Positions 16,238-37,789 of a stretch of DNA of 64,000 bases are shown in pieces (positions within the stretch are counted from its first letter, which is position 1; every line of letters starts with the position of its first letter). Under the pieces are notes generated by a model that was given only the letters and a program-made list of their open reading frames with translations, searched no databases and was not told the DNA's origin. The translations under genes were made by a program, and so were the position numbers. This DNA is from a virus, in the IMG/VR virus record IMGVR_UViG_3300043313_001040, positions 1 to 64,000 of that record; one strand, written 5' to 3'.

Positions 16238-16287
16238 ACTTATAACCCTTTCTAGTTGGTTGTTACTTCTGCACTTCTGCCTAACGA

Positions 16288-17190: not shown

Positions 17191-17224
17191 ACTATTACTT
17201 CTTCCTTTCGGTTTGTTGTTGTTA

Positions 17225-17875: not shown

Positions 17876-17877
17876 TT

Positions 17878-19331: not shown

Positions 19332-19407
19332 TTACTTCTCCTTGTTGTTGTTAGACTTTCGATTACATAGTTGATCGCGGCGATTACCACCACGATTTTT
19401 AGATACT

Positions 19408-20103: not shown

Positions 20104-20114
20104 CGGCCTTTTTA

Positions 20115-20894
20115 TTACTCTTCCAACTTCAGGTGATCTTTGCCTCGCAACCGGTTTAGCCGTTTCTGGACTTCGATTTTGAGGCTAACCAACTGTTCGG
20201 GACGGACGCGGTAGTTGTAGAGGTCCTCGATCAACTCCACGTATTGCATCATGCTGGCGCACTTTACCATCCGACTGCTTTGGCCCTCGATTTTCTTTAT
20301 CATGCGCTCAGGATCGAAGTCCTTAATGTGGAACAAGTGCATGATCGCTACCGCCAACGGCCGATCCGTAGCAAACGGAATCAGCTTTTTGAGGGTAACG
20401 ATGACGTGCGCCACCTTGTAGGCGTGCTGTTCATTCACCACCCTGAACGTGCCGTATCGAATAGATTCGACTCCGCCGCCACTTTGTTTCCCTCCCAAGA
20501 GAGACGCGCTCGTCGTTACCGGGAGATGGAACTCATGGATGAACGCTCGCAGCTTCACGTAGTCCTTCTTGCCCTGCTCGGCGAAGGAATGCACGTAGTC
20601 CCGTGGCGACCACGGGGTTTGAACACTGTTAGCTGCCGATACGTCAACGATTGAGATGCTGTCTCGTTCAATGTAGAATATCGGCGTCCTAAGTGCCTTA
20701 GCCGCTTCGAATCGCGATTGTCCGTCCGCGATTCCCAATTTACCCAAATGCGGTGTCACCAGGATCGGATAATCCGCGAGCTGGTTCTTCCGCTTGATGG
20801 CTTTTATCATCTTGGCGACCCGTTTTGCCGTGGGTCGGTTGCCCTTGATGTAAGTGAACTTATTGTAGTCTGTTGTTGATAATACCTTAATCAT
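20115..20894 (-). CDS. ParB/Srx N-terminal-domain protein
   Basis: TTDYNKF...GNR...PILV...IADGQSRFEA (DGQHR-like). Confidence 0.75.
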   Translation of the reverse strand: MIKVLSTTDYNKFTYIKGNRPTAKRVAKMIKAIKRKNQLADYPILVTPHLGKLGIADGQSRFEAAKALRTPIFYIERDSISIVDVSAANSVQTPWSPRDYVHSFAEQGKKDYVKLRAFIHEFHLPVTTSASLLGGKQSGGGVESIRYGTFRVVNEQHAYKVAHVIVTLKKLIPFATDRPLAVAIMHLFHIKDFDPERMIKKIEGQSSRMVKCASMMQYVELIEDLYNYRVRPEQLVSLKIEVQKRLNRLRGKDHLKLEE

Positions 20895-20901
20895 GTTGTT
20901 G

Positions 20902-22554
20902 TTACTGACGTTTAATGATCTGAATTAGGGAATCCGCTATGTTCTCGATCTCGTTCCTGACAAGAACGCTATCGAACCACTTGTGCAGCTTGTCGCTTCT
21001 TGCCCCAGGTTCTCCGACGTAGAGACCGATGGTGTAGACACCTTTCCGGTGCCACTCCTCCTTTCTGATGTGCTCGTCGGTGATCTCGCCGTCGGTGAAG
21101 AAGATCGTTAGATCGCTATTCACCAGCTCGGCCTCATTACTCCGCATGGTGTTAGCGAAGCCTTCGAAGCCTCCCGGGGTGTGGAGATGATTCAGAATCC
21201 TGGGATCGAATGGCATCGGGACCTTGGCGTAGTTTCCTCCACTCAGGATCATATTTTTGCACTCGATCTTTCGCATTCTTACCAACTCGTTGAGCACGTA
21301 GGCCAGGTAGCACCCTTGTTCGGCAACTCCGCTCATTGAACCGCTGCAGTCCAGAACGAAGCTGATCTCTTTTACTCCATAGGGATCATCGCCTTTGCGC
21401 AGATAGATGTCGTCCGCGCCGCGCATGAACTTGTTGAAGTCGATCTTATTAGTCGGGTTCCGACTGGTTATAACTCCCTCGCCGCCCTCCAGGAACTTCT
21501 CGAACAACCGAATCAGGCCGTCAGCCTTCTTCGTGTCGATGGTTCTGATTTTGTGGCCGAAGAACTCGTTAAGTGGAAGCACCAGTTTCTTGTCCTTGTG
21601 ATCTTGCACCTTCAAGTCCGGACGAGGCGGGTCCTTTTTGAGATGCCCACCTGACGGACTAGCGCCGCTGGTCCTGGCGACTGTTTCCTCGATTTCTTTG
21701 TGCTCGCTGCCATCGGCGGCCTCTGCGCCCTCTGGCATGGCTCCGTCGCCCGGGTCCTGAGGATCTGGCAAGTCGGTTCCATGTGGACCGGCAAACCCTT
21801 CTCCAGGCGCTAAACCGCCAGATCCTTCCGCGCCGCCCCCGCCTGTCTCGGGAAAGGTTTTAATCCAGCTCTGGACAATAGGAATGATCTCTTCGGTCCC
21901 GGCCGCGTGGATTGCTCGCCGATAATACCACCTTATCAGGTTGCGACGCCCATACTTCGGGTCGCCAGCGCCTTCGAATTGCATCTTTGGGTCAGGATCT
22001 TTTTTCACCCAATCCTCCATCAGCTTTGGGCTGTTCTCCATGCGGGTGCAGTCGAGAAACAGCCTTACTGCTGGTTGCGGTTTGCCTTCCGCTTTTATGG
22101 CCTCAAGGGCTGGGTCGCCCTTCATCTCGTCGATCAGCTTCAGGTAGCGGAGCCACCCAAACCGACGACGAAACATTCGACGCCACTTGGCCTCGATCCG
22201 AGCGTCTTCCATCAGGTTCCACAAGTGGAACGGGATTTTCGCGTCTTTCTGGAGCGTCGCCATCCGTTCATTGGCCCGGTTGGTAAAGAGGCTGTGGGCC
22301 CCTTCGTGATCGTAAACACGTTGAACGAATGCCATCTTGCCCCTCGACCAGAGAGTGCGTTCGGCGCACTTGTCCAGGTCGGAAGCAATGACGATATTGT
22401 GGCGGCTAATACGATTGTCGTAGCGCCACGATGCCTCTGGCTTGAAGCCCTCAGGCATAAAGGCTAGGTCGTAACCGTCAACGGTTGTCAGTCGCATGAA
22501 CCGACTTTCGATGTGGTAATCAACCAGCCTCGTTTTTTCGCGATAGTTTAGCAT
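20902..22554 (-). CDS. vWA-domain protein with N-terminal metallopeptidase-like motif (CobT/NorD-like partner)
   Basis: HEGAH, NLMEDARIE; MIDAS DCSGSM and FTDG. Confidence 0.85.
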   Translation of the reverse strand: MLNYREKTRLVDYHIESRFMRLTTVDGYDLAFMPEGFKPEASWRYDNRISRHNIVIASDLDKCAERTLWSRGKMAFVQRVYDHEGAHSLFTNRANERMATLQKDAKIPFHLWNLMEDARIEAKWRRMFRRRFGWLRYLKLIDEMKGDPALEAIKAEGKPQPAVRLFLDCTRMENSPKLMEDWVKKDPDPKMQFEGAGDPKYGRRNLIRWYYRRAIHAAGTEEIIPIVQSWIKTFPETGGGGAEGSGGLAPGEGFAGPHGTDLPDPQDPGDGAMPEGAEAADGSEHKEIEETVARTSGASPSGGHLKKDPPRPDLKVQDHKDKKLVLPLNEFFGHKIRTIDTKKADGLIRLFEKFLEGGEGVITSRNPTNKIDFNKFMRGADDIYLRKGDDPYGVKEISFVLDCSGSMSGVAEQGCYLAYVLNELVRMRKIECKNMILSGGNYAKVPMPFDPRILNHLHTPGGFEGFANTMRSNEAELVNSDLTIFFTDGEITDEHIRKEEWHRKGVYTIGLYVGEPGARSDKLHKWFDSVLVRNEIENIADSLIQIIKRQ

Positions 22555-22562
22555 ACTTCTCC

Positions 22563-23732
22563 TTAGTTAGGCCGAATCGGGAAGTGGCGAGCGATCAGCT
22601 TACGCAACTGATCCAATTGCTCTGGACTCCGGTGGCCCTGGATATTTCTACCTACCCATACCAGGGCTGAGTCGAGCAACGTATTGCCAATGTCCATCTC
22701 GTTCTCGGCCATCTTGATTCCATCGCAAAGAATACGAACATCCGGCTCCAGCATCAGGAAGTTATCTGCCTTCAGCTTTTTACCTTCAGAGAGTAGCTTC
22801 GCGAACTTCGGTGTAAGCGACACGCTGAACCCGTGATCTTTGAGCACGGTAGCTATGATTCGCTTCACCGATTCCTCCGTGGTCTGCAGATCATACTGCA
22901 ACCATCTACCAGCTTCCGCTGGGTCACCTGCTTGAACGTCGAAACCCGCACCGATGTTTGTTGATGCGATGATTGAGATCATGTGACGCGGCGCGAAGAT
23001 CGTCTCTTGATTGGTTACGAGACCATCTTCTACGTTAATGATCCGGCCAGTCGAAATCGTGTAATACTCGATCCCGTCTGGCATCCTGAATGGAGATAGA
23101 CCGCTAATAAGCGGACTGCGTTCGCGCACTTTGATCCTATACAACTCGTCGATGTAAAGACAGACTCTCTTGCCCTGGGACGCGAGTCGAAACGCGCGAG
23201 CCAGTTCACCATCCTGCCATACTGCTGTAGTTGCGCCTCCCGATGGAGCCCATGGTCTAGGCCCTCCTTTCATCTGTTGAGCGTCCACGCCTTCATCGCC
23301 CTGCATGAGAACGACTTCATCGAACGGCTGCGAGTAGGCGAACACCTTCGCTGCCGTCGTTTTGCCCGAACCCTGGTCACCAATGAACAGGACCGGCTTC
23401 TTCGCTGCACCCGGAGGCACATACTTTCGAAGATACTTCATTACGCTGCTCTCATCACTCGCTTCTGGCGAGAGAGCAGCTTTGATTGCTTTCTTCTTCT
23501 CTACTGGTAACGGCTCGACGATCTTGGAGATGATCTCGTGCAGCTCTTTTTCAATCGGCGGGATGATGTCTTCCCGGCCGAGCTTTATTCTTGTTTCGCT
23601 GAGAATCTTGTAAACATGATCCTCGATTTCCGCTTGCTGTGTGGGGCTAAGCGCCATATACTTCTTCTTCCCTTTCTTCCTGGCCTCCCTCAGCTTCTTA
23701 CGTTTATGGTAAGCTGCGTCTCTGGTTGGCAT
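22563..23732 (-). CDS. MoxR/CbbQ-like AAA+ ATPase
   Basis: Walker A GDQGSGKT; WQDGEL..AF; Walker B LYIDE; STN; start at ATG 23732 after (CAA)n. Confidence 0.85.
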   Translation of the reverse strand: MPTRDAAYHKRKKLREARKKGKKKYMALSPTQQAEIEDHVYKILSETRIKLGREDIIPPIEKELHEIISKIVEPLPVEKKKAIKAALSPEASDESSVMKYLRKYVPPGAAKKPVLFIGDQGSGKTTAAKVFAYSQPFDEVVLMQGDEGVDAQQMKGGPRPWAPSGGATTAVWQDGELARAFRLASQGKRVCLYIDELYRIKVRERSPLISGLSPFRMPDGIEYYTISTGRIINVEDGLVTNQETIFAPRHMISIIASTNIGAGFDVQAGDPAEAGRWLQYDLQTTEESVKRIIATVLKDHGFSVSLTPKFAKLLSEGKKLKADNFLMLEPDVRILCDGIKMAENEMDIGNTLLDSALVWVGRNIQGHRSPEQLDQLRKLIARHFPIRPN

Positions 23733-23815
23733 TGTTGTTGTTTTTGCAGCACGCTGCAAAGAGGGTCGGACTCCTTGCAGCGAGGTTGTCAGACTTGTCC
23801 TACAGGGTCAAGTCT

Positions 23816-24016
23816 TTATTTTTCAGTGAAGGCAGCTATTCGCTCACCCAAAATGTCTGAGTATAACGTCATAGCTACCAGTTGCCGTTCGAGGCGTAAC
23901 TGCTCTGGCCCCTTTACGGAGCGATATGCCTCGCCCCGAAGAAACGCGGTCAGTTTGTCACGCTTTTCGTCCAGCTCTTTTTTTTCGGTCACCACCCTTT
24001 CTTGATGTGGTGCCAT
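23816..24016 (-). CDS. crAss001_48-like small protein
   Basis: HQERVVTEKKELDEK..KL..FL...RL..QL.AM..Y..IL..RI. Confidence 0.75.
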   Translation of the reverse strand: MAPHQERVVTEKKELDEKRDKLTAFLRGEAYRSVKGPEQLRLERQLVAMTLYSDILGERIAAFTEK

Positions 24017-24585
24017 TACGCCGCTTTCTTCGGGTTCTTCGGGTTCTCCACGCCTTCCTGGAGATACTCCGACAGCATCAGGTGCCCGAGGATCAGATCG
24101 TCGAGCATTTCCGATGTTACGTAGTCCGGGATGATTTGCGGCAACGGTGGGCTCATCCCGTCGTCGAACCCAATCCAGTTGTTCTCGCCATCGTCGATGT
24201 CCGGCACGAACCGGGGAGCCGGATGGCCAACGGTGCCCGCACCACTGTTGATACGAGCCGTGAAGATGAAGTCCGGCGAAAACCGGGGATCATCATCTAT
24301 GTCCATCCAACGTCCGCGTCCGTCGAACGGAGCGCGACCCGCCTTGAAGGCGTCGTAGTCCATCGGTTTGCGCAGCTTGAAGTAGTAATACCTCCCGTCT
24401 GCGTGCACGATGATTCCTTCCTGGACGTAGATCGTGTCAGGGTCTACGTCTTCTTCCTTCATGCCTTCCGGCACGTAACCCGGAATGACATCCGGCTTCT
24501 TGACTACCGCATAGCGGTGCTGGTTGGCGTCCAGCAGGTAAACTAGATCCCATTCGGGATCGAATTTGCGTTCTACTCTTGGCAT
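24016..24585 (-). CDS. acidic hypothetical protein
   Basis: 189-aa ORF; (CAA) leader. Confidence 0.7.
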   Translation of the reverse strand: MPRVERKFDPEWDLVYLLDANQHRYAVVKKPDVIPGYVPEGMKEEDVDPDTIYVQEGIIVHADGRYYYFKLRKPMDYDAFKAGRAPFDGRGRWMDIDDDPRFSPDFIFTARINSGAGTVGHPAPRFVPDIDDGENNWIGFDDGMSPPLPQIIPDYVTSEMLDDLILGHLMLSEYLQEGVENPKNPKKAA

Positions 24586-24612
24586 AACTGTTGTTGCTTT
24601 CTATTTTTGTGG

Positions 24613-24651
24613 AAAGGGCGGCCCCGAATCAACCAAGGACCGAGGCCGCCC
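24613..24651 (-). terminator. GC hairpin, possible terminator or processing site
   Basis: GGGCGGCC/GGCCGCCC stem with short U-tract on the minus strand. Confidence 0.5.
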
Positions 24652-24669
24652 GACTTCCGTTGTTTCTAA

Positions 24670-26211
24670 TTAGGCTCCGAGCGACTTCTTGATCTTCTTA
24701 ACGTCGCCTGCCACTGCATCGACCTTCGGGCCGATGACTTCTTCGATTGCCACCCGCGAAGGCGACAATATTTGATGTGCTTTCTTGACCAGGCTCAGGT
24801 CCTTCTCGGCCTGAGTCGTGCCATCGCCGCGTGGGCGAGCCTTCTTCTGCATGACCTCGCCAGCGATCACCAACATTTCTGTGGTGACGCGCGCGTCGAT
24901 CTCTGCACCGAACTTGCCAATCGCACGCATCTTTGCGCGATTGATGCCGTTCACGATGTCCGCAGGCACCAGGTCCTTGAACGCCTCCCCGATAGCCGTA
25001 ATGTCCACGTCCGGCGCAATGAATTGCCCCGCGACATGTTGAACGAAACGACCAGCCGCCTCCGCATCTGGCGGCGTAAGCTCGATGTCGATGTCGACAC
25101 GGCCGGACCGCATGAATGCGTCGTTGATCTTCTCAGGGAAGTTGGTCGTGAAGACCGTGATGACTTCCGCGTTTTTGGCACCGACACCATCGAGCGTCTC
25201 CAGGATGGAGTTCATCTCTTTGGTCCGTTCCCCGCTGAAGATCGCGTCGCAATCCTCAACGAACAGCACCGATGGGCTGTAGAGCTGCGCCAGCTTGTAG
25301 GCCGACAGGAACTTCTCCGGAGTTTTCAGGTAGAAGTAAGTCCACCCGTGCTCCTTCGCGATCTGCGCCGTGTAATACGACGTGAGCGATTTACCGGTTC
25401 CGAACTTGCCCTTCAACAGCACGCCGCGCTTCACGGCGACTCCATTGATTCGGAAGTCCTGCGGACGTTTCATAACGTCCCAGACCTCCGTCTGCAGCTC
25501 GAACTCGATGTCTCGCGGAAGAATGAGCATGACCTCCTTGGTCACGTCCATATACTTCGGCGCACACTGCGTCGGATCGAAGTTCTCCGTTCCGACATAG
25601 CTCAGATCAAGTTCAACCGGCTGACCGCGATAGATGGAGTGTTCCTTCAGGAACCACTTCGCGGTTTCGACGACTTCCTTGATCGAAGGCTCGAATTTGC
25701 GTTTCACAACGCCCGACACTCCCAACGCGAGAGGTGCACTCGCACCCTTCACGAACAGGCTAAGGCTTCCACCTTCCCATGCGGGCGGAGCCATCTCGCC
25801 ATAAACAACCTGGACGCTTTCTTCCAGGCTGACGGCGATGTTGAGACGACGCGGCGGCCGAGGGCCGAAGAACGTCATTCTCTCCTTGGCGTGGGTGAAC
25901 CCATACACCTTTTCTAAGGCCCTGTTCACGGCCACGATGCCATCCAGAGGATAGCAGTCGAACTCGAAGGAGATTTCCACTGGCTGCTCCTCCAACTCCT
26001 CAGCCTGGAGCAATGCCTTGTGCAGCTCCTTGTAGCTGTTGGCCCGGACAAACCGTTGCCCGAACCGTAGGACCTCGAATTGAGGCTCGACTACCGCCGT
26101 CCCTTCTTTGACGGACGACTCCCTGCCGATCAGCTCCGTTGTTACCAGAGCTTTATCGGATACATCTGCTTTTCGTGTTTTTACCATTTGATACCTACTT
26201 CTTCTAAGCAT
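24670..26211 (-). CDS. classical AAA+ ATPase (FtsH/SpoVK-like core)
   Basis: RGVLLKGKFGTGKS; LFVEDCD; TTNFPEKINDAFMRSGRVD. Confidence 0.9.
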   Translation of the reverse strand: MLRRSRYQMVKTRKADVSDKALVTTELIGRESSVKEGTAVVEPQFEVLRFGQRFVRANSYKELHKALLQAEELEEQPVEISFEFDCYPLDGIVAVNRALEKVYGFTHAKERMTFFGPRPPRRLNIAVSLEESVQVVYGEMAPPAWEGGSLSLFVKGASAPLALGVSGVVKRKFEPSIKEVVETAKWFLKEHSIYRGQPVELDLSYVGTENFDPTQCAPKYMDVTKEVMLILPRDIEFELQTEVWDVMKRPQDFRINGVAVKRGVLLKGKFGTGKSLTSYYTAQIAKEHGWTYFYLKTPEKFLSAYKLAQLYSPSVLFVEDCDAIFSGERTKEMNSILETLDGVGAKNAEVITVFTTNFPEKINDAFMRSGRVDIDIELTPPDAEAAGRFVQHVAGQFIAPDVDITAIGEAFKDLVPADIVNGINRAKMRAIGKFGAEIDARVTTEMLVIAGEVMQKKARPRGDGTTQAEKDLSLVKKAHQILSPSRVAIEEVIGPKVDAVAGDVKKIKKSLGA

Positions 26212-26337
26212 GGGATTTGTTGTTGTTATTTACCTGACCCACCCACACTAAACTGGCTTCCAGGTAATCTGCTGTAACGTTGGCAGCAGACTGGGGGAGA
26301 GTCCTTAGCTAAATGGACTCTCCCCGGTGTCTGCAAC

Positions 26338-26592
26338 CTATGCGATTACGGCTTCTGTTTTCTTTTTCATCGCTTTACGCCGGTCTTCCTGGGTAAGTTT
26401 GCCCAGTTTGACCCGAGTCCGTAGCTGAGACGGACTTCCGATTTCAGGATGAATTGAAACTGCGATTAGTCGTTTTTCGCGGTTCGCTTTTCGCCGAAGC
26501 AGCTTGACTGGATATGTCGCTTTGAAGTTCGCGTAATATCCTTTGTCTGCCGAGTGTCGGCGCATTTTGCTTTTCGATACTCCTTGTGCCAT
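26338..26592 (-). CDS. small basic protein with perfect SD
   Basis: AGAAAGGAGGTGA upstream; K/R-rich 84 aa. Confidence 0.7.
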   Translation of the reverse strand: MAQGVSKSKMRRHSADKGYYANFKATYPVKLLRRKANREKRLIAVSIHPEIGSPSQLRTRVKLGKLTQEDRRKAMKKKTEAVIA

Positions 26593-26678
26593 TCTTAATC
26601 ACCTCCTTTCTGGTTGGCCTAACGAGGGGTTAGTCGTCAGCCAACTGTTTAGCAATTATCTTTCTTTTTGTTGCTGCT

Positions 26679-26900
26679 TTATACTTTCTCCAGAATGCTC
26701 CGGTCCGTCAGACCAGTAGCGAACGCCCACAGCAGGAGCGCCTTTGCAGGCAGCTCGTATGGATGTTCTTTCTGGGCTTGCTCACCAACCGTGAGAAGCT
26801 CACCAACTGGCGTCCCAAACGGCTCAGGATCTGGGTTCAGATGCTGAGGACCGGTGGAGACACACGTTGCGTATTGGTGGATGTTGCTATACTTCTTCAT
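26679..26900 (-). CDS. hypothetical protein
   Basis: AGAAGTA leader. Confidence 0.55.
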   Translation of the reverse strand: MKKYSNIHQYATCVSTGPQHLNPDPEPFGTPVGELLTVGEQAQKEHPYELPAKALLLWAFATGLTDRSILEKV

Positions 26901-27018
26901 AGCTATTACTTCTGCATTGGCCTTTCTAAAGGGCCGACTTGTTGTTGTTGTTACCGAATTGGCTTATGCCAACCGGACTAGAACACCGAAGGATTGAACT
27001 TCGATGCTCTGTGTCCGA

Positions 27019-27303
27019 TCAAGAACCACTTACCGGTAGGATAAATCCTACCGTTACTTCTCCGTCTTTCAGCTCTCTAAATCCGACTGCCAATACCAGG
27101 TAACGCTTGTCGTTGTAACGGATCACGTCACCCATGCTAACTGACGGAAGCTTCTGAGCCTGAATGTCGTTTTGTCCATAGTAATAAATGGTCGACAGGT
27201 TTGTTTCGGTCAGGTCGCTGACCAAGGTTACAGGGACTTCGACCTTTCGGATCTCCCCCTGGGCGAACATGTTGAGTTCGACTTCGTAGGTTATGTTTCT
27301 CAT
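27019..27303 (-). CDS. YodL-like protein
   Basis: PSVSMGDVI...YLVLAVGF. Confidence 0.65.
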   Translation of the reverse strand: MRNITYEVELNMFAQGEIRKVEVPVTLVSDLTETNLSTIYYYGQNDIQAQKLPSVSMGDVIRYNDKRYLVLAVGFRELKDGEVTVGFILPVSGS

Positions 27304-27644
27304 TACCCGTGCACCTCGACTTTGACTCCCGTGATCTTGGTGTAGATCTCCGCGAGGTTTTTGAACTTCTCGATGATGCTCTTGGCGTAGGGACCCGAGC
27401 GATGACGTGCCTGGATGTAAAGATCTCCTGTGTCCTCATCCGTTTTGAGCCACCAGTCGTTCGTGCCACCGATCACGAGATCGGGACCAACTGAATCGTG
27501 ATCTTCCCAGTCGGCCGGATAACAGTTCGGATGATCTGGTGATATGGCCGTCGCGAACAACAAGGCCAAGGTGACCTTGCTGAAATGCATTGCTGCTCTG
27601 AATTGCATTTCGGAAATAATGTTTCCGATTTCATTGTCTTTCAT
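27303..27644 (-). CDS. hypothetical protein, first gene of the early arm
   Basis: duplicated GCAGAAGTA leader. Confidence 0.7.
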   Translation of the reverse strand: MKDNEIGNIISEMQFRAAMHFSKVTLALLFATAISPDHPNCYPADWEDHDSVGPDLVIGGTNDWWLKTDEDTGDLYIQARHRSGPYAKSIIEKFKNLAEIYTKITGVKVEVHG

Positions 27645-27699
27645 ACTTCTGCCTTTCTACTTCTGCTTTTTTTGCAGCGTGCTGCAATCGTATGATTGC

Positions 27700-28445
27700 A
27701 TAACGACACCTGCTCCCAACACACCATTGCTGATGCGCTGGGAGCAAGCGGTCGGGTAGTTGACTGTCACTCAACTCCCGACATTGCTGATCTTGCCTAC
27801 TACAGTGGGCACTCACGGTGCTCTGCGCTTTTGCTTCTCACGCTTCACTGCTCTTCCGAGTCCGGTTGATTACGGCATACCCATACCAGGTTTGGACTGG
27901 CTTTGGTGTTGCTGGCGGTCGGCCCTCCCGGGTGACGATGCTACTCGTCCCGACACAGCTAATCCGTAATTCGGCAAGATTCTTGAATGTAATCTCCTGC
28001 ACTGACCACGAACCACTCGTGGCTGATGTTCTCTTCTGCACTCCATAGTTAACAGTCGCATATTGTTGGCGTTCAGAACTCCGATGGGAGCCAGGAAGTT
28101 TCTCTCAGGAAACCTTATCCTATCTCCATCCCGCATACTGCGGGGGCCCGGCGATGCAGTAACATCACCCGTTTAGTCTGGCCTTCATCTCGTCTGTGTG
28201 CCATTTTAGCGGAACACTCCACTTCAGAGATTACACTTTTTAGGAACCATCGTCAGCTACAGTCATATGAATTCAGGATGCGCGTCTACTCGCTAAGCGC
28301 CTCTCCGTGGAGTCTCCGGGCGTCTGCCGGTTAGACCTTTATAGGACAAGGTTATGCCTAGCGAAGTGATCCGAGTTACTCCGGGTTCACTTGCTACTCG
28401 CTAACATCCTGAATGACCATCAATGGTGACGACCATCCCTAATTA
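27700..28445 (-). ncRNA. putative large structured ncRNA / leader RNA (~750 nt)
   Basis: no credible ORF; nested long-range helices 28241-28255/28427-28441 (G-U pairs only on the minus strand), 28271-28280/28405-28414, 27988-27996/28227-28235, 27869-27875/27964-27970, plus 3' hairpins. Confidence 0.65.
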
Positions 28446-28447
28446 AA

Positions 28448-28480
28448 TTTTCAAAGAACTGGCGATGTCCGAGAACATCG
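28448..28480 (-). promoter_or_regulatory. boxB-like hairpin plus boxA antitermination element
   Basis: minus strand CGATGT-TCTCGG-ACATCG hairpin then AGTTCTTTGAAAA. Confidence 0.65.
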
Positions 28481-28498
28481 TCTGCTACCTATGCAAAA

Positions 28499-28527
28499 CG
28501 AAAAAAGGCCAAGGTTTCCCCTGGCCT
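28499..28527 (-). terminator. intrinsic terminator downstream of terS
   Basis: AGGCCAGGG-GAAA-CCTTGGCC-TTTTTT. Confidence 0.75.
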
Positions 28528-28607
28528 ACTCGTATTATGCATACTAAGACAAAATTAAAAAAAATTTTGCCTTGATCCGGCCCAAAAACCGGTCTGAAAA
28601 AAACGAC

Positions 28608-29186
28608 CTAAACTTTGGAGGTCGGCCACTCCTTCTCGTGAATCGCGATTAAAGCTTCGTCGACTGCTTCACGCAGGAGCAGCTCGATCTCTTCCTTGGG
28701 ACGCATCTCAACAACCGGTGCCATCTTTGACGGCAGCGACAGCATGATTGTGCGGACCGCTGTCATCGCCTTGGAGACCCACAGCTTGCAGTCGTCGTTC
28801 GTGTGGTATTGGCCGAGCCGAATCTTTTGCTCCAGCTCCAGGCGCTCGCATACTGCAGTAAGTTTTCGAATCTCCAGCTCTGACTTCATCGGAGACGGCG
28901 GCTCGCTTCCGCCTAACGAACTAACCTTGCCGGTCTCGTCCATCCAGGCTTTCCATGCGAGCACGTTGTAGAGGCCCTTTCTTCGCCCCGGGCATCCGCT
29001 CTCACGTGTCCAGCGATTCACCGTTTCACGCGCGATCCCCAGCGCGTCGGCCAGGTCTTGCTGGGTGCTAACAAAACTTTCCTCATCGTCTTCGCTCTCC
29101 GTCATCTTGGCCAAATCAGCGTCCGACATCTTCACGTCCTTCATCGCTTTACGAAGGCGCTTGCTTGTTGCTTCTTTTGTGGGCAT
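28608..29186 (-). CDS. terS: terminase small subunit (lambda Nu1-like)
   Basis: wHTH TQQDLADALGIARETVNRW...GCP; coiled coil ERLELE...GQY; LSLPSKMAP. Confidence 0.75.
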   Translation of the reverse strand: MPTKEATSKRLRKAMKDVKMSDADLAKMTESEDDEESFVSTQQDLADALGIARETVNRWTRESGCPGRRKGLYNVLAWKAWMDETGKVSSLGGSEPPSPMKSELEIRKLTAVCERLELEQKIRLGQYHTNDDCKLWVSKAMTAVRTIMLSLPSKMAPVVEMRPKEEIELLLREAVDEALIAIHEKEWPTSKV

Positions 29187-29204
29187 ACGTTATGTCTTAC
29201 GCCA

Positions 29205-31010
29205 ATGGATATTATCGAGCAAGCTATTCGTGACGCTTGCACTCCAGCAGATAGACGGCCGCCGTGGAAATGGGCCGAGGATTATTGTTACGTCGCGACC
29301 TCACCGTTCCCCGGCAAATGGCGCTCTGATAACTCGCCCTGGGTAAAGGAACTCATGGAGTCCTTCGCTGATGGTGTCGTTAAAACGATCTCGGTCATGT
29401 GCTCTGCTCAGTCGGCCAAGACTGAGACCATGCTCGTCATGCTGAACTGGATCATCAGCGAAGATCCAGGCCCGACCATGTGGGTCACGAGTAACGACGA
29501 CGAAGCCCTCAAGTTCTGCATCGAGCGGCTCATGCCGACTCTCAACTCATGCGACAAAGTTCGCGAGCTGATGCCGAAGAATCTGACCGGCTCCATCGAC
29601 CGCAGAAAAGCCAAGGCACAGGAGATTCACTTCCCCCGAATGACGCTGGAAGTTATCGGCTCCAACTCCGAGTCGAAGCTGCAGTCTAAGCCGCGCCGCT
29701 GGCTACTGATGGACGAGGTTCGCAACTGGCCGGATGGCGCACTGCCGATGGTGCTCAAACGAACCCGCGCCTATTACAACGCCAAGCGCATCATCATCTC
29801 GACGCCCAAAGATCAGCATGATGCGGTGCACCAGAACTTCATCCAGGGCGACCAGAGGCATTGGCACATTTCGTGCCCCAAGTGCGGTCATGATCAGGTA
29901 ATGACCTGGGAAAAAATTAAGTGGGACGAAAACGGGGTCACAAGGCCTAACGGATTGTGGGACTTCGATGAGATGGCTAAGACCATCCGCTTCGAATGCG
30001 AGAAGAACAAATGCCAGATTACGGACAACCCCGTCGACCGCCGACACTTCGCTCGTAACGGAAAGTGGGTGCCGCACAACCGGCTGGCTCCAAAACACTA
30101 TAGGTCCTACTGCTGGAATGCGCTGATCCCAACCTGGGTTCGCTGGCGCGATCTCGTGGAGGAATTCATCAATGCGAACAAAGCTCTGTCATGGGGGGAC
30201 CCGGAGCCGCTCAAGACCTTCGTGAACGAAACACTGGGCGAACCGTGGGAAGATCGTATGCAATGGGGCGATGATTCCGCATACTTGGAAGCTCGCAAGG
30301 CCGACTACCGCATGGGCGAAGCCTGGGCCGATGAGAAGACCCGCTTCATTGGTGTCGACGTTCAGAAGGACTATCTGCGTTACGTGGTCCGCGCATTCGC
30401 TGATGGCGGCCGCTCGCGGCTCATTGACTATGGCACGCTGAAGAATTTCGATGATCTGAAGGGAAAGATCGCCGAGCTGCACGTCGACCCAGATAACGTC
30501 ATCCTGGATGCGGCCCACAAGACGCCGGACGTTTATAAAGCTGTCATCGACTCCGGTTACACGTGGAAGCCGTTCTGGGGCGACGACCGCGTTTACTTTA
30601 CTCTGAAGGGCGTTAAATCTGTCTGGACGGTCAACACCGTCGATCCGTTCATTGGCACCCGTTACGAGGGGCGCGCCCAGCCGATCCGGTTGTTTCACTG
30701 GAGCAATCCGTCGATCAAGGACACGCTCATGATGATGATGCAGGGGAAATCTTCCCAGTGGGAGATCCCAAAGCACGTCGGCCAGGATTACGTCCTGGAA
30801 GTGACGGCCGAATACCGACAGGAAGTCGTCGACCTGCGCGGACAGATTCGTTATAAATACGCCAGGAAGCGTAAGGAAAACCACGCATTCGACTGCGAGT
30901 GCATGATCCTCACGGCGGCCATCATCAACCGCCTCGTCGGTCTACCGGAACCCTTGGAGAGGGCCCCGGTAGAACCGATGGCTAAAGAGGAGACTTTCGC
31001 TGCGTTGTGA
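29205..31010 (+). CDS. terL: terminase large subunit (lambda GpA family); start trimmed to MDIIEQ
   Basis: WAE..PGKW; SAQSAKTE; MDEV; ISTP; GDQR...CPKCGH; FVNETLGEPWE; GVDVQ; ENHAFDCE. Confidence 0.95.
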   Translation: MDIIEQAIRDACTPADRRPPWKWAEDYCYVATSPFPGKWRSDNSPWVKELMESFADGVVKTISVMCSAQSAKTETMLVMLNWIISEDPGPTMWVTSNDDEALKFCIERLMPTLNSCDKVRELMPKNLTGSIDRRKAKAQEIHFPRMTLEVIGSNSESKLQSKPRRWLLMDEVRNWPDGALPMVLKRTRAYYNAKRIIISTPKDQHDAVHQNFIQGDQRHWHISCPKCGHDQVMTWEKIKWDENGVTRPNGLWDFDEMAKTIRFECEKNKCQITDNPVDRRHFARNGKWVPHNRLAPKHYRSYCWNALIPTWVRWRDLVEEFINANKALSWGDPEPLKTFVNETLGEPWEDRMQWGDDSAYLEARKADYRMGEAWADEKTRFIGVDVQKDYLRYVVRAFADGGRSRLIDYGTLKNFDDLKGKIAELHVDPDNVILDAAHKTPDVYKAVIDSGYTWKPFWGDDRVYFTLKGVKSVWTVNTVDPFIGTRYEGRAQPIRLFHWSNPSIKDTLMMMMQGKSSQWEIPKHVGQDYVLEVTAEYRQEVVDLRGQIRYKYARKRKENHAFDCECMILTAAIINRLVGLPEPLERAPVEPMAKEETFAAL

Positions 31011-31028
31011 ATTTGCAGCACGCTGCAA

Positions 31029-31271
31029 TCAGCCTTCGTCGCCAACGATGTTTGCTAGACTTCGGATGAGTCGGCCGGTGATCAAAACGACGTATTTCTG
31101 ACCAGCCTCGTTCTCGAACACCAGGTCAACCGTTGAGAGGTCTTCCGTGGTGCCGTGTCGAACGACATTGGCATGGTCGATCTTCGCCGCCAGGAATTCC
31201 GGTGGCCGGAATATTGGCGCTTTGGATGGATGATCGAAGACGTTTACTTTGAGATCAGTCTGACCACTCAC
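31029..31271 (-). CDS. hypothetical protein
   Basis: 80-aa ORF coupled to the upstream gene; GT...TVDLVF..E.GQKYV. Confidence 0.65.
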   Translation of the reverse strand: MSGQTDLKVNVFDHPSKAPIFRPPEFLAAKIDHANVVRHGTTEDLSTVDLVFENEAGQKYVVLITGRLIRSLANIVGDEG

Positions 31272-31861
31272 GAGATCAGCCGGGAGTGGATGTTAGCCAC
31301 ACCTGAGAGCATCCGAGCACAGGTTTCTTTCCTCTCTGAAGACCAATCTTCGAGCGGTGATTGCTCGAATTCGTCGGCGAAATACCGCTCGATCTTGGCC
31401 GCCCAGGTTACGAACGATTCCCGTTTCTCGTCCTTCTTCTTCTTCTTGGCTGGGTCGTTGTCGTCGCACAGCTTTAGGACATCGCGAATGCTCTCGCATT
31501 TCTCAATTTCCGATGCGTGCTTTGCCATCGCCTCGCTGACCTTCATGTAATTGTAGGCCGTGCGCTGCGAGAACTCGAAGGTTTCCGCCAGCCATTCCGT
31601 GAAGTTTTTATCCTTCGGGAGCTGGACTTTCGCTGCTAGGAGAAGCTGTCCGGCGCGGGCAGCGGCGATTACCGCTCTACCCATCTGACCAATCGCCGCT
31701 TTGTGGCTCTGCTTGATTTCTTCCGTAAGGGCTTCGATGCCTTCCGGAACCTCTGAGGAGAGAAGACTTAAGTCGACTGCGGGCGCGTCCTTGGACAACC
31801 TGTCCGCTTTGGTGATCCGACCTACGGCACCTTTGGTGCCTTTCCTTGTGAATTCTGCCAT
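31268..31861 (-). CDS. DUF3102-domain protein
   Basis: AGQLLLAAK..LP...FTEWL...FSQRTAYNYMKV. Confidence 0.8.
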   Translation of the reverse strand: MAEFTRKGTKGAVGRITKADRLSKDAPAVDLSLLSSEVPEGIEALTEEIKQSHKAAIGQMGRAVIAAARAGQLLLAAKVQLPKDKNFTEWLAETFEFSQRTAYNYMKVSEAMAKHASEIEKCESIRDVLKLCDDNDPAKKKKKDEKRESFVTWAAKIERYFADEFEQSPLEDWSSERKETCARMLSGVANIHSRLIS

Positions 31862-32298
31862 ACTAATTCTGCCCTTTCTTTTGTTGCTGCTGTTTTTTGT
31901 CTGATTCGCTCGATCCGCTCTAGCTGGTGCTTCTTATAGCTCAGCCGAGCTTGCGGCGATTTTTGTGCCCTGGTAATGGGGAGCTGAAAGTCTTTCTGGA
32001 ACTTGAGAACGTGCTTGTCGAACGCCTGTTTGCTGATCCCGTGCTTGGCGGCAAACTGGGTGTAAGAGCATCCTTGGTATAATGGAATGCCGATAGCCGC
32101 TATGGCAACATCAATTTTGAGCCGGTAATCAGTGCTGTCGATTACCAGCGCGATGAACTTCAGCAATGCGACTGATGCCTGCATCGGCTCCGAAGAGAAG
32201 GATTCTGTCGACGGCGATTCGTCCAGGGAGTCATAATCGAACCCACAACTCGCCTGCGGATAGTCGGCGGGGTCACCGCCCTGATACGACGAATGCAT
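31822..32298 (-). CDS. sigma-region-4-like HTH protein, candidate late regulator
   Basis: SYTQFAAKHGISKQAFDKHVLKF. Confidence 0.55.
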   Translation of the reverse strand: MHSSYQGGDPADYPQASCGFDYDSLDESPSTESFSSEPMQASVALLKFIALVIDSTDYRLKIDVAIAAIGIPLYQGCSYTQFAAKHGISKQAFDKHVLKFQKDFQLPITRAQKSPQARLSYKKHQLERIERIRQKTAATKERAELVWQNSQGKAPKVP

Positions 32299-32309
32299 CC
32301 GTTATGATG

Positions 32310-32359
32310 TTGACATCGCTGCGAGGGCAAGCTATTCACGAGCGATTCCGGTGTGTCAA
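32310..32359. promoter_or_regulatory. face-to-face TTGACA boxes, candidate divergent promoters
   Basis: plus: TTGACA(32310)-17-TATTCA; minus: TTGACAC at 32353-32359. Confidence 0.45.
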
Positions 32360-32386
32360 CGATTTTTTTCATAAAGACCACAATAT

Positions 32387-32632
32387 ATGGATGACTGGCT
32401 GATCATTTATCGCACATATAGTGCCGAGGAGCTGGCCGCCGAGATTCAATTCCTCAAAGAAGAGCTGGCCAATCCTTACTCGGCCCAGGGGCTCGGTAGC
32501 CAGTCCGCCCAGCGTGATCTTAATGCTTTGAAGAACCGATTGTCGTCCGCTCTCCGGGTAGTCAGCGAGCGTGGCGGCGTTCGGCTCATCCAGGATAGTG
32601 TGGTTGATTTTAGCCGGGGACTTAACATCTAA
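32387..32632 (+). CDS. head-tail joining protein (gpW-like)
   Basis: small ORF just before portal; YSAQGLGSQSAQRDL. Confidence 0.65.
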   Translation: MDDWLIIYRTYSAEELAAEIQFLKEELANPYSAQGLGSQSAQRDLNALKNRLSSALRVVSERGGVRLIQDSVVDFSRGLNI

Positions 32633-34179
32633 TGCTTACGAAACTCGAAAGATCGGTTCACACCGCAATCGAACGGGTAATCGCTCTCGCCAGTCCGCGC
32701 GAGGCCGCTCGACGACAATACGAACGCAAGGTTTACGAGTTCGGTTATGACGCGGCCAGTCCCGGCCGAGCCCGCCAATCAAAAGGCAGCGGACTGTGGA
32801 ATGCCGCATCCGAGAATCTCCAGAACAACCGTGATCGCGTAAAGATGATGTGGGAGGTCCGCGACCTGGTTCAAAATTATTCGTTCATTAAATCCATACT
32901 GCTGAAGGAGGCAATGTATGTCTGCGGCAAAATCCAGTATCAAGCCAACACCGGGGACCCCCAGGCCGATAGCGCCATCGAAGAATACTGGAATTACTGG
33001 TGCAAAAACTGCGACCTCACTGGCCGCCACGTCTTCCGGCAACTCATCCAGCTCATGCACGTCGGGATGCGCCGCGATGGAGATTCCGGTTTCATCCTCG
33101 TGGCTCAAGGTCCCGACCTCAAACTTCAAACCGTCGAAGCCGACCGCATCGGTAATCCGAATCAAGCGGGAACATCTGAGCAAAACTATTTCGGCGGGAT
33201 CAAGGTCAACGAGCTAGGCCAGGTTATCTATTACCGAATCTTCACCCGCAACATTCATGGACAATACTCCGATCCCACTGAGGTTCCGCCTGACAGCTTT
33301 GTTCACTATTTTGATCCTCTCCGGAGTGACCAATACCGGGGCATCACGGCTTTCGACACCGCTATACCTCATGCGCGAGACCTCTACGAACTTCTTCAAA
33401 TGGAGAAGCTTGCGGTTAAATGGGCCAGCGCCCAGACCGGCATCATCACCAAACAGGACCCATCCCTTACTGAGTGGAAGACCGGTGACCTCACGGCAAA
33501 GGGCACACCTGTCGAGTCCGTAGAAGCTGGGAAACTTCATCGACTGCTTCCAGGAGAAAATGTTACGCCTTTCCCTGGTTCGAACCGGCCAAGTGCGACA
33601 TTTAATGGATTCGTTACCACTCTTGTTCGTGAAATGGCTAATGGACTGAACCTGCCGTTTTCTTTTGTTTGGGACCCAAGCACGCTCGGTGGAGCGACTG
33701 CCCGGCTGGAGTCTGCCCAAACTCAGCGTTGTTTCGCTCGTCACCAAAATCTCCTCACCGAGCAGGTGCTCGATAAGATCAAGAACGCGGTCCTCACCCG
33801 GGCTATCGCATTCAAGCTGATCCCACCAGTTCAAACCTATCGCCAGGGCATGTGGCAGTTCCCGGCGCACATCACCGCTGACGTGGGATACCAGACTCAA
33901 GCCGACCTCGCCATGCTGTCCCAGGGCCTCAAAACTCGTTCTGACATCTACGGAGAAATGGGCCTCGACTTCGAAGAACAGACGCGCGTTCTCGCCAGCG
34001 AGATTCAGTATTACCAGCGAATCGCAGCGGAGACCGGTGTGCCCATCGAGCTGCTCACCCAAGGCCTTCCGAATGCTTCGATGATGTTGGCCCAGATGCA
34101 GCAGGCACAGGAAGCAACCATGGCAGGCAAAAAGGCTCCAGTAATTCAGTTCCGACCCGAGTCTTCGAAGACTGGCTAG
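32632..34179 (+). CDS. portal protein (lambda gpB family)
   Basis: YDAA; RDLVQN; RDGD; VEADRI; HYFDPLRSDQYRGIT; RPS..F..F. Confidence 0.92.
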   Translation: MLTKLERSVHTAIERVIALASPREAARRQYERKVYEFGYDAASPGRARQSKGSGLWNAASENLQNNRDRVKMMWEVRDLVQNYSFIKSILLKEAMYVCGKIQYQANTGDPQADSAIEEYWNYWCKNCDLTGRHVFRQLIQLMHVGMRRDGDSGFILVAQGPDLKLQTVEADRIGNPNQAGTSEQNYFGGIKVNELGQVIYYRIFTRNIHGQYSDPTEVPPDSFVHYFDPLRSDQYRGITAFDTAIPHARDLYELLQMEKLAVKWASAQTGIITKQDPSLTEWKTGDLTAKGTPVESVEAGKLHRLLPGENVTPFPGSNRPSATFNGFVTTLVREMANGLNLPFSFVWDPSTLGGATARLESAQTQRCFARHQNLLTEQVLDKIKNAVLTRAIAFKLIPPVQTYRQGMWQFPAHITADVGYQTQADLAMLSQGLKTRSDIYGEMGLDFEEQTRVLASEIQYYQRIAAETGVPIELLTQGLPNASMMLAQMQQAQEATMAGKKAPVIQFRPESSKTG

Positions 34180-34200
34180 GTTGACGCCGTTTACAATAAC

Positions 34201-35148
34201 ATGATGACCTCTGGCGGCATTCCAATCTCCGGGCCAATCGCAGCCAGGATTTTGAAGCGCGTCAAAGGTCCGCGCAAGGCAGCCAAACGTGTCGCCACCG
34301 TTTTGTCGCGCATTGTCGATCCAATGGAAATGTCGGCTATCCTCAAGACTGTCGAGTTCGCTAAATCCTGGGCAGACACAGATCCCACGAGCTGGGGGGA
34401 CGTTTACGGATCGGTTAGCGAAACCGGCCGCCGCAAGCGCGGCATCGTTCATCAGGTCGTTGGTAATGCGGAATATGGTGCTCGCTGGGCCGGTGACCTT
34501 TACGACGTGTCCAGGCGCAACCGGTCCGAAAGCGGCCGAGCCGGGAAGTTTAAGATTACCGAGAACTCACCGAATACCGCCCGTATTACCGTGGGTCCTG
34601 ACCAACGCGAACGTCGGAAGAAATACGTCTGGGAGCGCGTGGGGGTGCAACGGCAGATTGCAGCCGTTGGGCTGGCCGCTACTCTGGTTGGGGGTGCAAA
34701 GCTGCATCAGGTTTTAACAAAAGCTGGTGAAGGCAGCGCCCTTGTTGGCATAAAAAACATTGCCAAACGGGCGGCTTACGGAGTCCGCAGTGGCGTCAGC
34801 AAAGCGGTCGGTGGCGGCTCTATTTCAGAACCAGTTCTGGAGCATGGCCCACAGCATGTCGCTGCCCAAATGGCTGCTGATTTGGCCAGTCAAAAAGAGA
34901 AAAAATCACAGTCCGCAGCGAAGAGCATAGCTACAAAATTGACCAGGTATGGTGAAGGGTCAAAGAAGGTTCTACCCTTCAAGACTGCTACCGGGGACGT
35001 CGTTCCATCTGGACATCCTGAAGCCGTTGAGCCCCACTTGACACCCGATCCTAAAACTGGAGAACTGAAGCACCGTAAGAAAACTTTCCGCAAAGAAGCG
35101 TTCGACTTTCCAGGAGGCAATCCGATTCCATTTAGAAAATCCAACTAA
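34201..35148 (+). CDS. basic putative internal head/ejection protein
   Basis: between portal and protease; Gly/Ala hydrophobic segment IAAVGLAATLVGG. Confidence 0.6.
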   Translation: MMTSGGIPISGPIAARILKRVKGPRKAAKRVATVLSRIVDPMEMSAILKTVEFAKSWADTDPTSWGDVYGSVSETGRRKRGIVHQVVGNAEYGARWAGDLYDVSRRNRSESGRAGKFKITENSPNTARITVGPDQRERRKKYVWERVGVQRQIAAVGLAATLVGGAKLHQVLTKAGEGSALVGIKNIAKRAAYGVRSGVSKAVGGGSISEPVLEHGPQHVAAQMAADLASQKEKKSQSAAKSIATKLTRYGEGSKKVLPFKTATGDVVPSGHPEAVEPHLTPDPKTGELKHRKKTFRKEAFDFPGGNPIPFRKSN

Positions 35149-35149
35149 C

Positions 35150-35569
35150 ATGAACCTTACACCCAATCAGCAGAAACGTGTCGTAACTGAATTTTCGGTC
35201 CTGGAGCAACGCCTGGACATGGTGCTGTTCGCCAAACGAGACGACGACGATGATGATGGCTTTCCTTACGTGAAAACTGGCCTGGCCGGAGCTGGAGCTG
35301 CAGGTTTGGGATACGGTGGATATGCAGTTGCCCAGCGCGGCGCTCGCGTCAATGGTGCTCCTTTACCAGGAACCGTCATGGGACCAGGCATCGGCTATGG
35401 CATGAATTCGATTCCTGGGCCAATAGGTCCTTCGGCACCAAAGGGATTTTTCAATAATCTCGGCACGGGCGCTAAAGCCGTAGGAACCGACATCGCGGAA
35501 TCACCCGTGATTCGCAACCTTCGTGCCCTGCTGAAAGGCGGAGTCAGAAAAGCAGCCAAGGCCCTGTAA
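35150..35569 (+). CDS. putative internal head protein
   Basis: GLAGAGAAGLGYGGY glycine-zipper segment. Confidence 0.6.
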   Translation: MNLTPNQQKRVVTEFSVLEQRLDMVLFAKRDDDDDDGFPYVKTGLAGAGAAGLGYGGYAVAQRGARVNGAPLPGTVMGPGIGYGMNSIPGPIGPSAPKGFFNNLGTGAKAVGTDIAESPVIRNLRALLKGGVRKAAKAL

Positions 35570-37774: not shown

Positions 37775-37789
37775 CACCCTTGCTTCGGT

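Follow-up and report, generated by a model that had tools for sequence, protein, structure and literature searches.

What is encoded in a 963-nt stretch without open reading frames (ORFs) at the head of the long leftward gene arm of a soil phage? The stretch occupies positions 27645–28607 of the window, by which we mean the whole 64,000 nt of DNA that were analyzed; the window is part of a 72,014-base IMG/VR virus record with direct terminal repeats and a completeness rating of 100%. An initial annotation of this DNA had offered two readings of the stretch, a new large class of non-coding RNA (ncRNA) or an antitermination and processing leader. Both gained support in the present analysis, and they probably describe the same element from two angles. 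The reading that we prefer, with somewhat better than even confidence, is a new giant phage RNA with hijacked Nus antitermination of the ribosomal RNA operon (rrn) type, placed at the head of the 27.6-kb left arm. It is carried by a strand-specific non-coding structure, the identity of a boxA to those of rrn operons, synteny with a homologous locus together with compensatory changes in two hairpins, and the presence of the stretch in RNA libraries.

Large phage RNAs such as GOLLD and ROOL have solved structures, and their production and role are among the least understood in biology. From a soil phage, the stretch would contribute a new RNA that is unrelated to these but comparable in length, shows evidence of transcription and has a testable link to boxA. 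If true, this would explain how phages carry an untranslated RNA of 700–800 nt past Rho and fold it, and the Nus factors would become an experimental handle on all such giant RNAs.

A stretch closed in all six frames

The minus strand of the window carries long ORFs from 27644 down to 28, which form the leftward arm of non-structural genes, and the plus strand carries long ORFs from about 29.1 kb onward for the terminase large subunit (TerL), the portal and structural proteins. The ORF-free stretch lies between an ORF resembling the terminase small subunit (TerS) and an ORF of 113 amino acids (aa), both on the minus strand. The earlier claims of an ORF-free stretch of about 900 bp at the head of a long arm were thus borne out. 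The longest ORFs within the stretch, of 88 and 76 aa, were not judged credible. Each of the six frames contains 9–21 stop codons, and since every type of stop occurs at least twice per frame, no single stop reassignment or change of the genetic code opens a frame. A tblastx comparison of the window with the homologous contig L004, which is described below, found nothing inside the gap.

Folding of the minus strand

Positions 27690–28530 (841 nt) folded at -325.3 kcal/mol on the minus strand, with a z-score of -7.07 against 20 shuffles, and at -276.4 kcal/mol on the plus strand, with a z-score of -3.40 against 20 shuffles. The strand named in the initial annotation was therefore the better folded one. 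The same comparison was made for three parts folded alone, and none of 200 shuffles was as good as the native sequence in any of them: z was -4.47 for 28238–28445, -4.17 for 27984–28239, and -6.27 for 27700–27983, which includes domain 3 and the hairpins H2 and H3. In a GC-corrected scan of 638 segments of 300 nt, the four best starts on the minus strand were 28401, 27501, 28501, and 28301.

The structured body is modeled as about 735 nt (28441–27707, minus strand, as are all of its parts), with three helix-closed domains followed by H2 and H3. Domain 1 (28241–28441) is closed by a long-range helix of 15 positions (28441–28427 with 28255–28241), 14 of which are paired, three as G-U, with one G/G mismatch. 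It contains a perfect 10-bp helix (28414–28405 with 28280–28271) and a multi-branch core, with two copies of TTAGCGAGTAG. Domain 2 (27986–28237) is closed by a 12-bp helix of GUGUAAUCUCUG with CAGGAGAUUACA, an extension of the TGTAATCTC/GAGATTACA helix (28235–28227 with 27996–27988) that encloses a domain of 248 nt. Domain 3 (27790–27980) has an 8-bp closing helix with the ATTACGG/CCGTAAT sub-domain (27970–27964 with 27875–27869) inside it. Hairpins H2 (27751–27782) and H3 (27707–27750, 19–20 bp) were delimited by the minimum-free-energy fold and by comparison with L004, and H3 may be a processing site of the RNase III type.

All helices that had been named before were located in the sequence and are present in the minus-strand minimum-free-energy fold. 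The recurrence of CGAGUAG was also confirmed, with four occurrences of CGAGTAG on the minus strand; TTAGCGAGTAG occurs twice. A helix closing the whole RNA (28497–28484 with 27706–27693) was dropped, as L004 has no counterpart of it.

A boxA of the ribosomal RNA type before the body

An rrn-type boxA (GTTCTTTGAAAA) with seven flanking bases lies at 28441–28459 on the minus strand, giving the 19-mer GTTCTTTGAAAATTTAATT; AGTTCTTTGAAAA is located at 28460–28448. A boxB-like hairpin with a 7-bp stem and a 4-nt loop (28463–28480, minus strand) stands 3 nt upstream of boxA. The boxA 12-mer is unique in the window.

Five Verrucomicrobiota genomes with terminase relatives were examined for 16S genes, and four of them (G001–G004) had one. 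At 130–150 nt before the 16S gene, these four carry a hairpin with a T-run, a short hairpin and (G/A)(T/C)TC(T/A)TTGAAA(A/G)TTGAATTGTGCGA. As in the phage leader, a hairpin stands immediately upstream of their boxA, and a similar hairpin with T6 lies about 40 nt upstream of it. The phage 19-mer was identical to the 16S leader of G001 at 18 of 19 positions and to the boxA in the 16S–23S spacer of another genome (G187) at all 19, with the 12-mer core identical. Among about 2 Mb of fetched loci, 19-mer matches with at most one mismatch were confined to rrn leaders and the window. Because of these matches to real rRNA leaders and a spacer, the earlier call of a boxA-like site was right. The proposed boxB/boxA site stood in so far as a hairpin and a boxA are present, and its type was refined to rrn (hairpin, then boxA) rather than nut.

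The exact 19-mer, with G or T at its variable position, was found in three of 401 sampled genomes of the phylum, namely G001, G187, and G252. G001 carries it in its two rrn leaders. G187 has the T form of the phage between its tRNA-Ile and 23S genes, as a spacer boxA. In G252 the phage form occurs three times at contig ends (L321, L323, and L325) that share 100 nt upstream, and the copy that continues has no 16S start within 260 nt. These G252 copies could be a variant rrn leader or another boxA-led element.

The consensus of boxA is given as AUGAUCUUUGAAA for Bacillus subtilis and UGCUCUUUAACA for Escherichia coli, and boxA alone is reported to be sufficient to trigger formation of the antitermination complex (PMC13753749). 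For rrn leaders the order boxB, boxA, boxC is described, and the complex is proposed to keep hold of the leader strand so that it can pair over a long range (PMC10250234). The phage leader shares with rrn leaders the order of hairpin and boxA, the identity of its boxA with Verrucomicrobiota leaders and spacers, and the hairpin with a U-tract about 40 nt upstream. It also has the 5' strand of a long-range closing helix right after boxA, whose possible rrn counterpart is the boxC/leader–trailer helix (PMC10250234). This 15-position helix begins 6 nt past the boxA 12-mer and has no sequence match to E. coli boxC; at the boxC position, L004 has local hairpins in place of the long-range helix. Unlike an rrn leader, the phage leader is phage-encoded and is followed by an unrelated 735-nt RNA without an rRNA match and then by protein genes. 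A resemblance of the RNA body to host rrn operons was considered and rejected, since boxA alone matched and other 11–12-mers had E values of 1–4.

The nut sites of phage lambda likewise combine boxA and a hairpin in the leader of an early phage transcript and use host Nus factors (PMC2800207). However, the nut boxA precedes boxB, which binds N, whereas in the window the hairpin precedes boxA and it is the domain 1 helix, not a boxB hairpin, that follows boxA. boxA is also reported upstream of suhB and CRISPR operons (PMC13753749). In those cases it guards a long untranslated host transcript from Rho; in the window the transcript would be a giant structured phage RNA.

A homologous locus with compensatory changes

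The homologue, L004, is a 4,751-bp IMG/VR contig whose TerL is 78–80% identical to that of the window. Its layout is the same: TerS is inverted, about 880 nt without ORFs follow, and then comes a small ORF. The gap folded with a z-score of -7.49. The TerS and TerL DNA of the two loci is 71.5% identical, and blastn between window and L004 found no match inside the gap. The two gaps have in common a TATGCATAATA box, a CATAGG(G)TAG motif, a hairpin before boxA, scattered 7–10-mers and the 3' module. The hairpin before boxA in L004 differs from that of the window and stands at the same place.

Pair counts in the 3' module were obtained with a custom script. Among 15 comparable pairs of H3, nine were the same in L004, four had changed on both sides, two on one side, and none was broken; the G-U and U-G of pairs 2 and 4 were conserved. 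In the outer stem of H2, five of six pairs were the same and one showed a compensatory change of G-C to A-U. As judged from the two sequences, RNA-level conservation is genuine and is limited to the 3' hairpins H2 and H3. Covariation was confined to these hairpins because a single homologue was found, with which the central domains 1–3 could not be aligned. MAFFT alignments of the two RNAs misplaced helices and were discarded as a basis for a covariance model.

Presence in RNA libraries

Among 24 listed public runs containing the stretch, all were from soil and 10 were metatranscriptomes. Three RNA runs (X1, X2, and X5) and one DNA run were compared over positions 18001–38000 of the window. 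All three RNA runs yielded strandless contigs 100% identical to the stretch. Those of X1 covered 27777–28341 (depth 5.5) and 28313–28473 (depth 4.3), those of X2 covered 27848–28194 (depth 6.3) and 28280–28473 (depth 5.4), and X5 gave five 151-nt pieces between 27410 and 28471 (depth 2.1–3.0). Jointly, the metatranscriptome contigs span 27777–28473. In X1 and X2, the contigs of the RNA body had the greatest depth anywhere in the 20 kb. X2 covered 4 of 30 bins in this region, compared with 22 of 30 in the DNA run, which makes even DNA carry-over unlikely. No transcript ends can be read from the contig ends at 27777 and 27848 or from those parts of the 20 kb that lack RNA contigs.

These results bear on the possibility of a DNA-level element by the terminase genes, such as a packaging site, an origin or a protein-binding array, whose RNA fold would be incidental. 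The stretch does adjoin TerS and TerL, and the palindromes TATGCATAATA and TTGCAGC-NN-GCTGCAA resemble protein-binding sites. However, both palindromes are at the edges, outside the 735-nt body, and TerS lies elsewhere in most relatives, so the adjacency is recent. A DNA element would also not account for the strand asymmetry of the fold (z -7.07 versus -3.40), for the conserved G-U and U-G pairs of H3, which would be A/C mismatches on the other strand, or for RNA libraries that contain the stretch with uneven coverage of the phage. We consider such an element very unlikely.

A decayed gene remnant, or a chance structure without function, is to our judgment most improbable. The family is tiny, its core sequence is not conserved, and the element was not found in the 401 sampled genomes of the phylum, all of which would suit such an origin. 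Against this, both diverged copies folded at z of about -7, no frame could be rescued and tblastx gave no signal, and both copies keep the leader and the 3' hairpins, with compensatory changes. In addition, the stretch is the best-covered part of the phage in the RNA libraries.

Searches for known families and further members

Rfam 15 gave no match at gathering score anywhere in the 64-kb window. At E ≤10 over 27300–28800, nine rows appeared, all noise, the best being FasX (E 0.45) on the terminator-like hairpin. The initial annotation had named GOLLD, ROOL, OLE, HEARO and group I/II introns as families to be checked, and no Rfam match was found to any of these or to ribozymes, RNase P, tmRNA or rRNA. 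The sole intron-type row matched 44 nt of the plus strand to a plastid model of 47 positions with an E value of 6.6 and is noise. For GOLLD (RF02032), no hit reached the gathering score of 150 bits in the 64 kb and none appeared at E ≤10 in 27300–28800; the same search scored true GOLLDs at 285–315 bits. Twister gave no match at E ≤10, and a regular expression for its core motif found none in the window or L004. The window contains no tRNA genes, which are the usual neighbors of GOLLD, an RNA of about 800 nt. Short GOLLD-like strings in the window (UGUAAUCUC after an A-run, and GGAGUG) were set aside as chance, as their order differs from that in GOLLD.

Further members were sought by sequence, pattern and gene context. 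The region had no blastn match among 50,697 phage records. An exact 17-mer scan of IMG/VR returned 11 loci, about the number expected by chance on a rough estimate, and L004 alone was related; an anchored two-block pattern search also returned only L004. TerL-profile scans collected 80 loci from metagenomes, 80 from viruses and 56 from genomes, and neither RNA matched any of the metagenome and viral loci L015–L173 in a sensitive blastn search. A scan with the small protein encoded after the RNA gave seven loci, in which L004 recurred as L303 and none of the others had an upstream gap. A DNA search of the 401 phylum genomes found only chance matches of 25–38 nt.

GOLLD loci with the same leader

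A scan of IMG/VR with a boxA 18-mer returned 63 loci, mostly AT-rich coding matches. A group of eight of them (GC about 0.31) has a hairpin and ACGTTCTTTGAAAATTGAATT in non-coding DNA. All four members of this group that were tested carry a GOLLD, scored at 285–315 bits, 446–459 nt downstream on the same strand. The Rfam model of GOLLD covers only the conserved 3' domain, and a 5' region that is conserved less well, about as long as this distance, is described before it (10.1101/2024.12.08.627333). A 635-kb uncultured phage (L299) has a tRNA, a hairpin, GTTCTTTGAAAT and, 510 nt later, the GOLLD 3' domain. The leader of these GOLLDs is thus a hairpin with GTTCTTTGAAA(A/T), located 446–510 nt before the conserved 3' domain. 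The boxA-led GOLLD loci are L274 5811–4946 (minus), L287 4435–5296 (plus), L282 673–1535 (plus), L296 10654–11519 (plus), and L299 1405–2345 (plus). They belong to AT-rich aquatic phage contigs and L299, have GTTCTTTGAAAA or GTTCTTTGAAAT, and have tmRNA and tRNA genes nearby.

The GOLLDs of two Acinetobacter phages (L298 and L300), which lie in tRNA arrays, had no boxA-like site within 1.5 kb by regular expression, so the link between boxA and GOLLD is limited to some lineages. A literature search for GOLLD or giant phage RNAs with boxA found no paper that links them.

The RNA of the window resembles GOLLD in being phage-encoded, 700–800 nt in length and multi-domain, with extreme predicted structure, a better-conserved 3' part and GAGUA-type motifs, and some GOLLD loci (the aquatic phage group and the 635-kb phage) share its hairpin and GTTCTTTGAAA(A/T) leader. 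It differs from GOLLD in that the Rfam model does not match it at E ≤10 and that it heads a protein-coding arm instead of lying in a tRNA island. The function of GOLLD is stated to be unknown (10.1101/2024.12.08.627333). ROOL is likewise described as a large ornate RNA of phages and prophages with unknown function (10.1101/2024.12.08.627333); the RNA of the window has neither an Rfam match to it nor a tRNA neighborhood. A broader idea, which we offer tentatively and consider somewhat doubtful, is that giant phage RNAs form a wider 'pseudo-ribosomal' class that borrows the rRNA leader of the host, with the soil-phage RNA as a structurally unrelated member. The host's rRNA antitermination complex would then transcribe and protect a large RNA and fold it during transcription, and the body would become a discrete, stable particle acting in trans in the infected cell. 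Such a particle would possibly assemble into multimers, as GOLLD and ROOL do, or soak up ribosomal proteins as a sponge.

Leaders of more distant relatives

In a subclade with TerL identity of about 51%, the head of the leftward arm carries a hairpin and a boxA-like site, 360–530 nt without ORFs, and a match resembling the twister-P1 ribozyme. The boxA-like sites are GATCTTTGAAAT in L029, GTTCTTTGAGAT in L032 and GTTCTTTGACAG in L165. Same-strand matches to twister-P1 (RF03160) scored 46.9 bits in L032 (E 2.5e-7), 44.3 in L165 (E 1.4e-6), and 31.7 in L029, all three below the Rfam gathering score of 67.2 bits. The core-motif regular expression identified four distinct twister-like sites, on the minus strand at L032 1812–1742, L165 1694–1624 and L029 1531–1444, where it agrees with the sub-threshold Rfam matches, and at L127 1539–1481, where it is the sole source. 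A called ORF of at least 50 aa starts 22–28 nt past the element in L032, L127, and L165, and in L029 the start lies inside the element. In the twister-like element of L029, a change of CCC to CAC is matched by one of GGG to GUG.

These distant boxA-led leaders were barely folded, with z of -0.22 (L032), -0.43 (L165), and -2.12. A boxA-led leader that is severed from the mRNA looks ancestral in this phage group. The giant structured body belongs in particular to the lineage that comprises the window and L004, in which H2 and H3 would take the place of the ribozyme. The twister-P1-like element has the same genomic position, at the leader end, where the window and L004 have H2 and H3 instead and no twister match. 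L029 also has a 63-aa Lys/Arg-rich ORF (2179–2370, plus strand) in the divergent gap opposite its boxA-led leader.

A leader, an RNA with a role of its own, or both

The relatives bring in the strongest competing explanation, a purely cis-acting leader. All of the stretch would then serve the early operon as 5' untranslated region, where its only tasks would be to load an antitermination complex and to regulate or stabilize the mRNA, and its fold would only block Rho and RNases. The element indeed shares the strand of the first ORF, which it immediately precedes, and neither H2, H3 nor the palindrome is followed by a U-tract terminator; X5 contigs also occur at 27410–27697, in and just before the first ORF. 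Relatives retain the boxA, a long leader and the ribozyme here, with a leader body that is unstructured or unrelated, and the fast divergence of the core despite 71.5% flanking DNA identity fits selection for 'being folded'. Nevertheless, we think this explanation unlikely. A body of 735 nt with three closed domains and z of about -7 in two diverged phages exceeds the needs of any known leader. The contigs of X1 and X2 are confined to the RNA body and are the deepest in 20 kb, as for a stable processed RNA, and GOLLD, whose quaternary structure has been solved, stands behind this kind of leader in some phages. Its abundance compared with the flanking genes and the GOLLD parallel lead us to prefer a stable RNA that has a role of its own to a leader and nothing more.

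For this preferred reading, rrn biology offers a model of Nus recruitment, processing and independent function. The boxA of the nascent transcript would recruit host NusB and S10 which, with NusA, NusG and their partners, would convert the RNA polymerase of the host into an antitermination complex of the rrn type. Such a complex would resist Rho along 700–800 nt of untranslated RNA. It may aid the formation of the domain-closing helices, as proposed for the leader–trailer helix of rRNA, and may continue into the early genes of the 27.6-kb arm. The structured body would then persist as a stable RNA, probably freed by cleavage near the conserved 3' hairpins, and might act on its own, as supposed for GOLLD and ROOL.

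Several results weigh against the preferred reading. The family has two members, the window and L004, and domains 1–3 are unalignable between them, which leaves most of the structure without support from covariation. The boxA of L004 is degenerate, with 9 of 12 bases identical in an ungapped comparison. The 19-mer is not specific to the phylum, and phages of 31% GC also carry the G form at the head of GOLLD. The unstructured leaders of L032 and L165 imply that a leader role does not need structure.

Other such points come from the RNA libraries and from the arm itself. The contigs are strandless and of depth 2–6, with DNA carry-over not formally excluded, and no contig joins the RNA body to the first ORF. 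In the three RNA runs they break off at 28473, 28473, and 28471, which falls within the loop of the boxB-like hairpin. If this were the true 5' end, the hairpin would be outside the RNA; the stops are a weak hint at a 5' end, either a start or a processing site. Predicted intrinsic terminators in the leftward arm are also few. Terminator-like sites in 7650–27640 numbered 34 on both strands compared with 24.1 ± 5.0 in shuffles, and seven were on the minus strand, one of them convincing (13626–13612). The internal terminators that the initial annotation had placed in the arm are therefore weakly supported.

Other elements upstream of the body and the TTGCAGC palindrome

The TATGCATAATA box (28533–28543, minus strand) is a near-palindromic 11-mer that follows an AT-rich stretch and has an identical counterpart in the same position in L004. 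Apart from its own reverse-complement overlap it occurs once in the window, and it may be the -10 region of a promoter or an operator. A scan of 26500–29500 found no sigma-70 consensus promoter. A GC-rich hairpin with a GAAA-type loop and a T-run (28501–28527, minus strand) has nine pairs, six of them G-C, followed by TTTTT. The hairpin at 28527–28506 with its T5 is the strongest terminator-like site in 26500–29500, and it is either the terminator of TerS or a 5'-terminal hairpin of the leader.

The GCATAGGTAGCAGA motif (28481–28494, minus strand) is a candidate promoter or processing signal, with a near-copy at 26343–26330 and CCATAGGGTAGAGAGAC at the matching place in L004. Written as GCATAGGT(A/T)GCAGA(C), this 14-nt sequence has two minus-strand copies with one mismatch, at 28494–28481 and 26343–26330, each followed by a hairpin. 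The first precedes the boxB-like hairpin and the second lies upstream of the gene for a 513-aa AAA ATPase. Inside this ATPase gene, several 300-nt segments of 25201–26100 (minus strand) were among the 12 best-folding of the 638 after GC correction.

The TTGCAGC-NN-GCTGCAA palindrome at 27672–27687 lies 28 nt upstream of the first ORF's start codon (ATG), and the same 16-mer is found at the same place in L004. The window contains 11 copies (10 perfect and one with one mismatch) compared with 0.28 expected, each of 16 nt and starting at 3252, 10659, 15964, 23744, 27672, 31013, 35798, 41883, 50143, 55800, and 59810. Most of them are located in short intergenic gaps right before a ribosome-binding site or start codon. 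The center is AC, GT or GC, which means that both orientations occur. An RNA hairpin explains this less well than a DNA site to which a dimeric regulator would bind. The palindrome is thus probably the DNA site of a phage regulator and was left out of the RNA.

Neighboring genes and probable host

The TerS-like gene (28608–29186, minus strand) encodes 192 aa with an N-terminal helix-turn-helix (HTH) and matches the terminase small subunit family phrog_57 (E 3e-21) and Pfam HTH motifs. TerS homologues adjoin TerL in relatives. In the window (28608–31010) and L004, TerS is inverted relative to TerL; in most relatives the two are on the same strand, often with TerS directly upstream, and they were co-directional in 36 of the best 40 TerL-relative rows. 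The TerL ORF as listed has 650 aa from a TTG start overlapping TerS, and its database relatives have 601 aa. Against phage records, TerL identity was below 60% in all 870 matches and at most 27% among the 30 matches listed.

The first ORF of the leftward arm (113 aa, 27303–27644, minus strand) was taken from the ORF list and has no PHROG match. The second ORF after the RNA (27019–27303) is 44–47% identical to the first ORF after the RNA of L004. No tyrosine integrase match was found in the 72-kb genome. A T7-type RNA polymerase match was also absent from it, a negative that is not validated, as the PF00940 control matched none of 14 control genomes; on this result the phage would rely on the host polymerase. 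The host is probably a soil member of the Verrucomicrobiota, to judge from the terminase relatives in metagenome-assembled genomes and from the boxA, which is not phylum-specific. For 46 of the 56 genome loci with terminase relatives, the record titles name Verrucomicrobiota lineages.

Positions 31364–31960 are the sole other place of the compared 20 kb with contigs in all three metatranscriptomes. They hold two minus-strand ORFs, one of 197 aa with DUF3102 and one of 158 aa, between the plus-strand genes for TerL and the portal. Both ORFs are kept beside TerL in many relatives.

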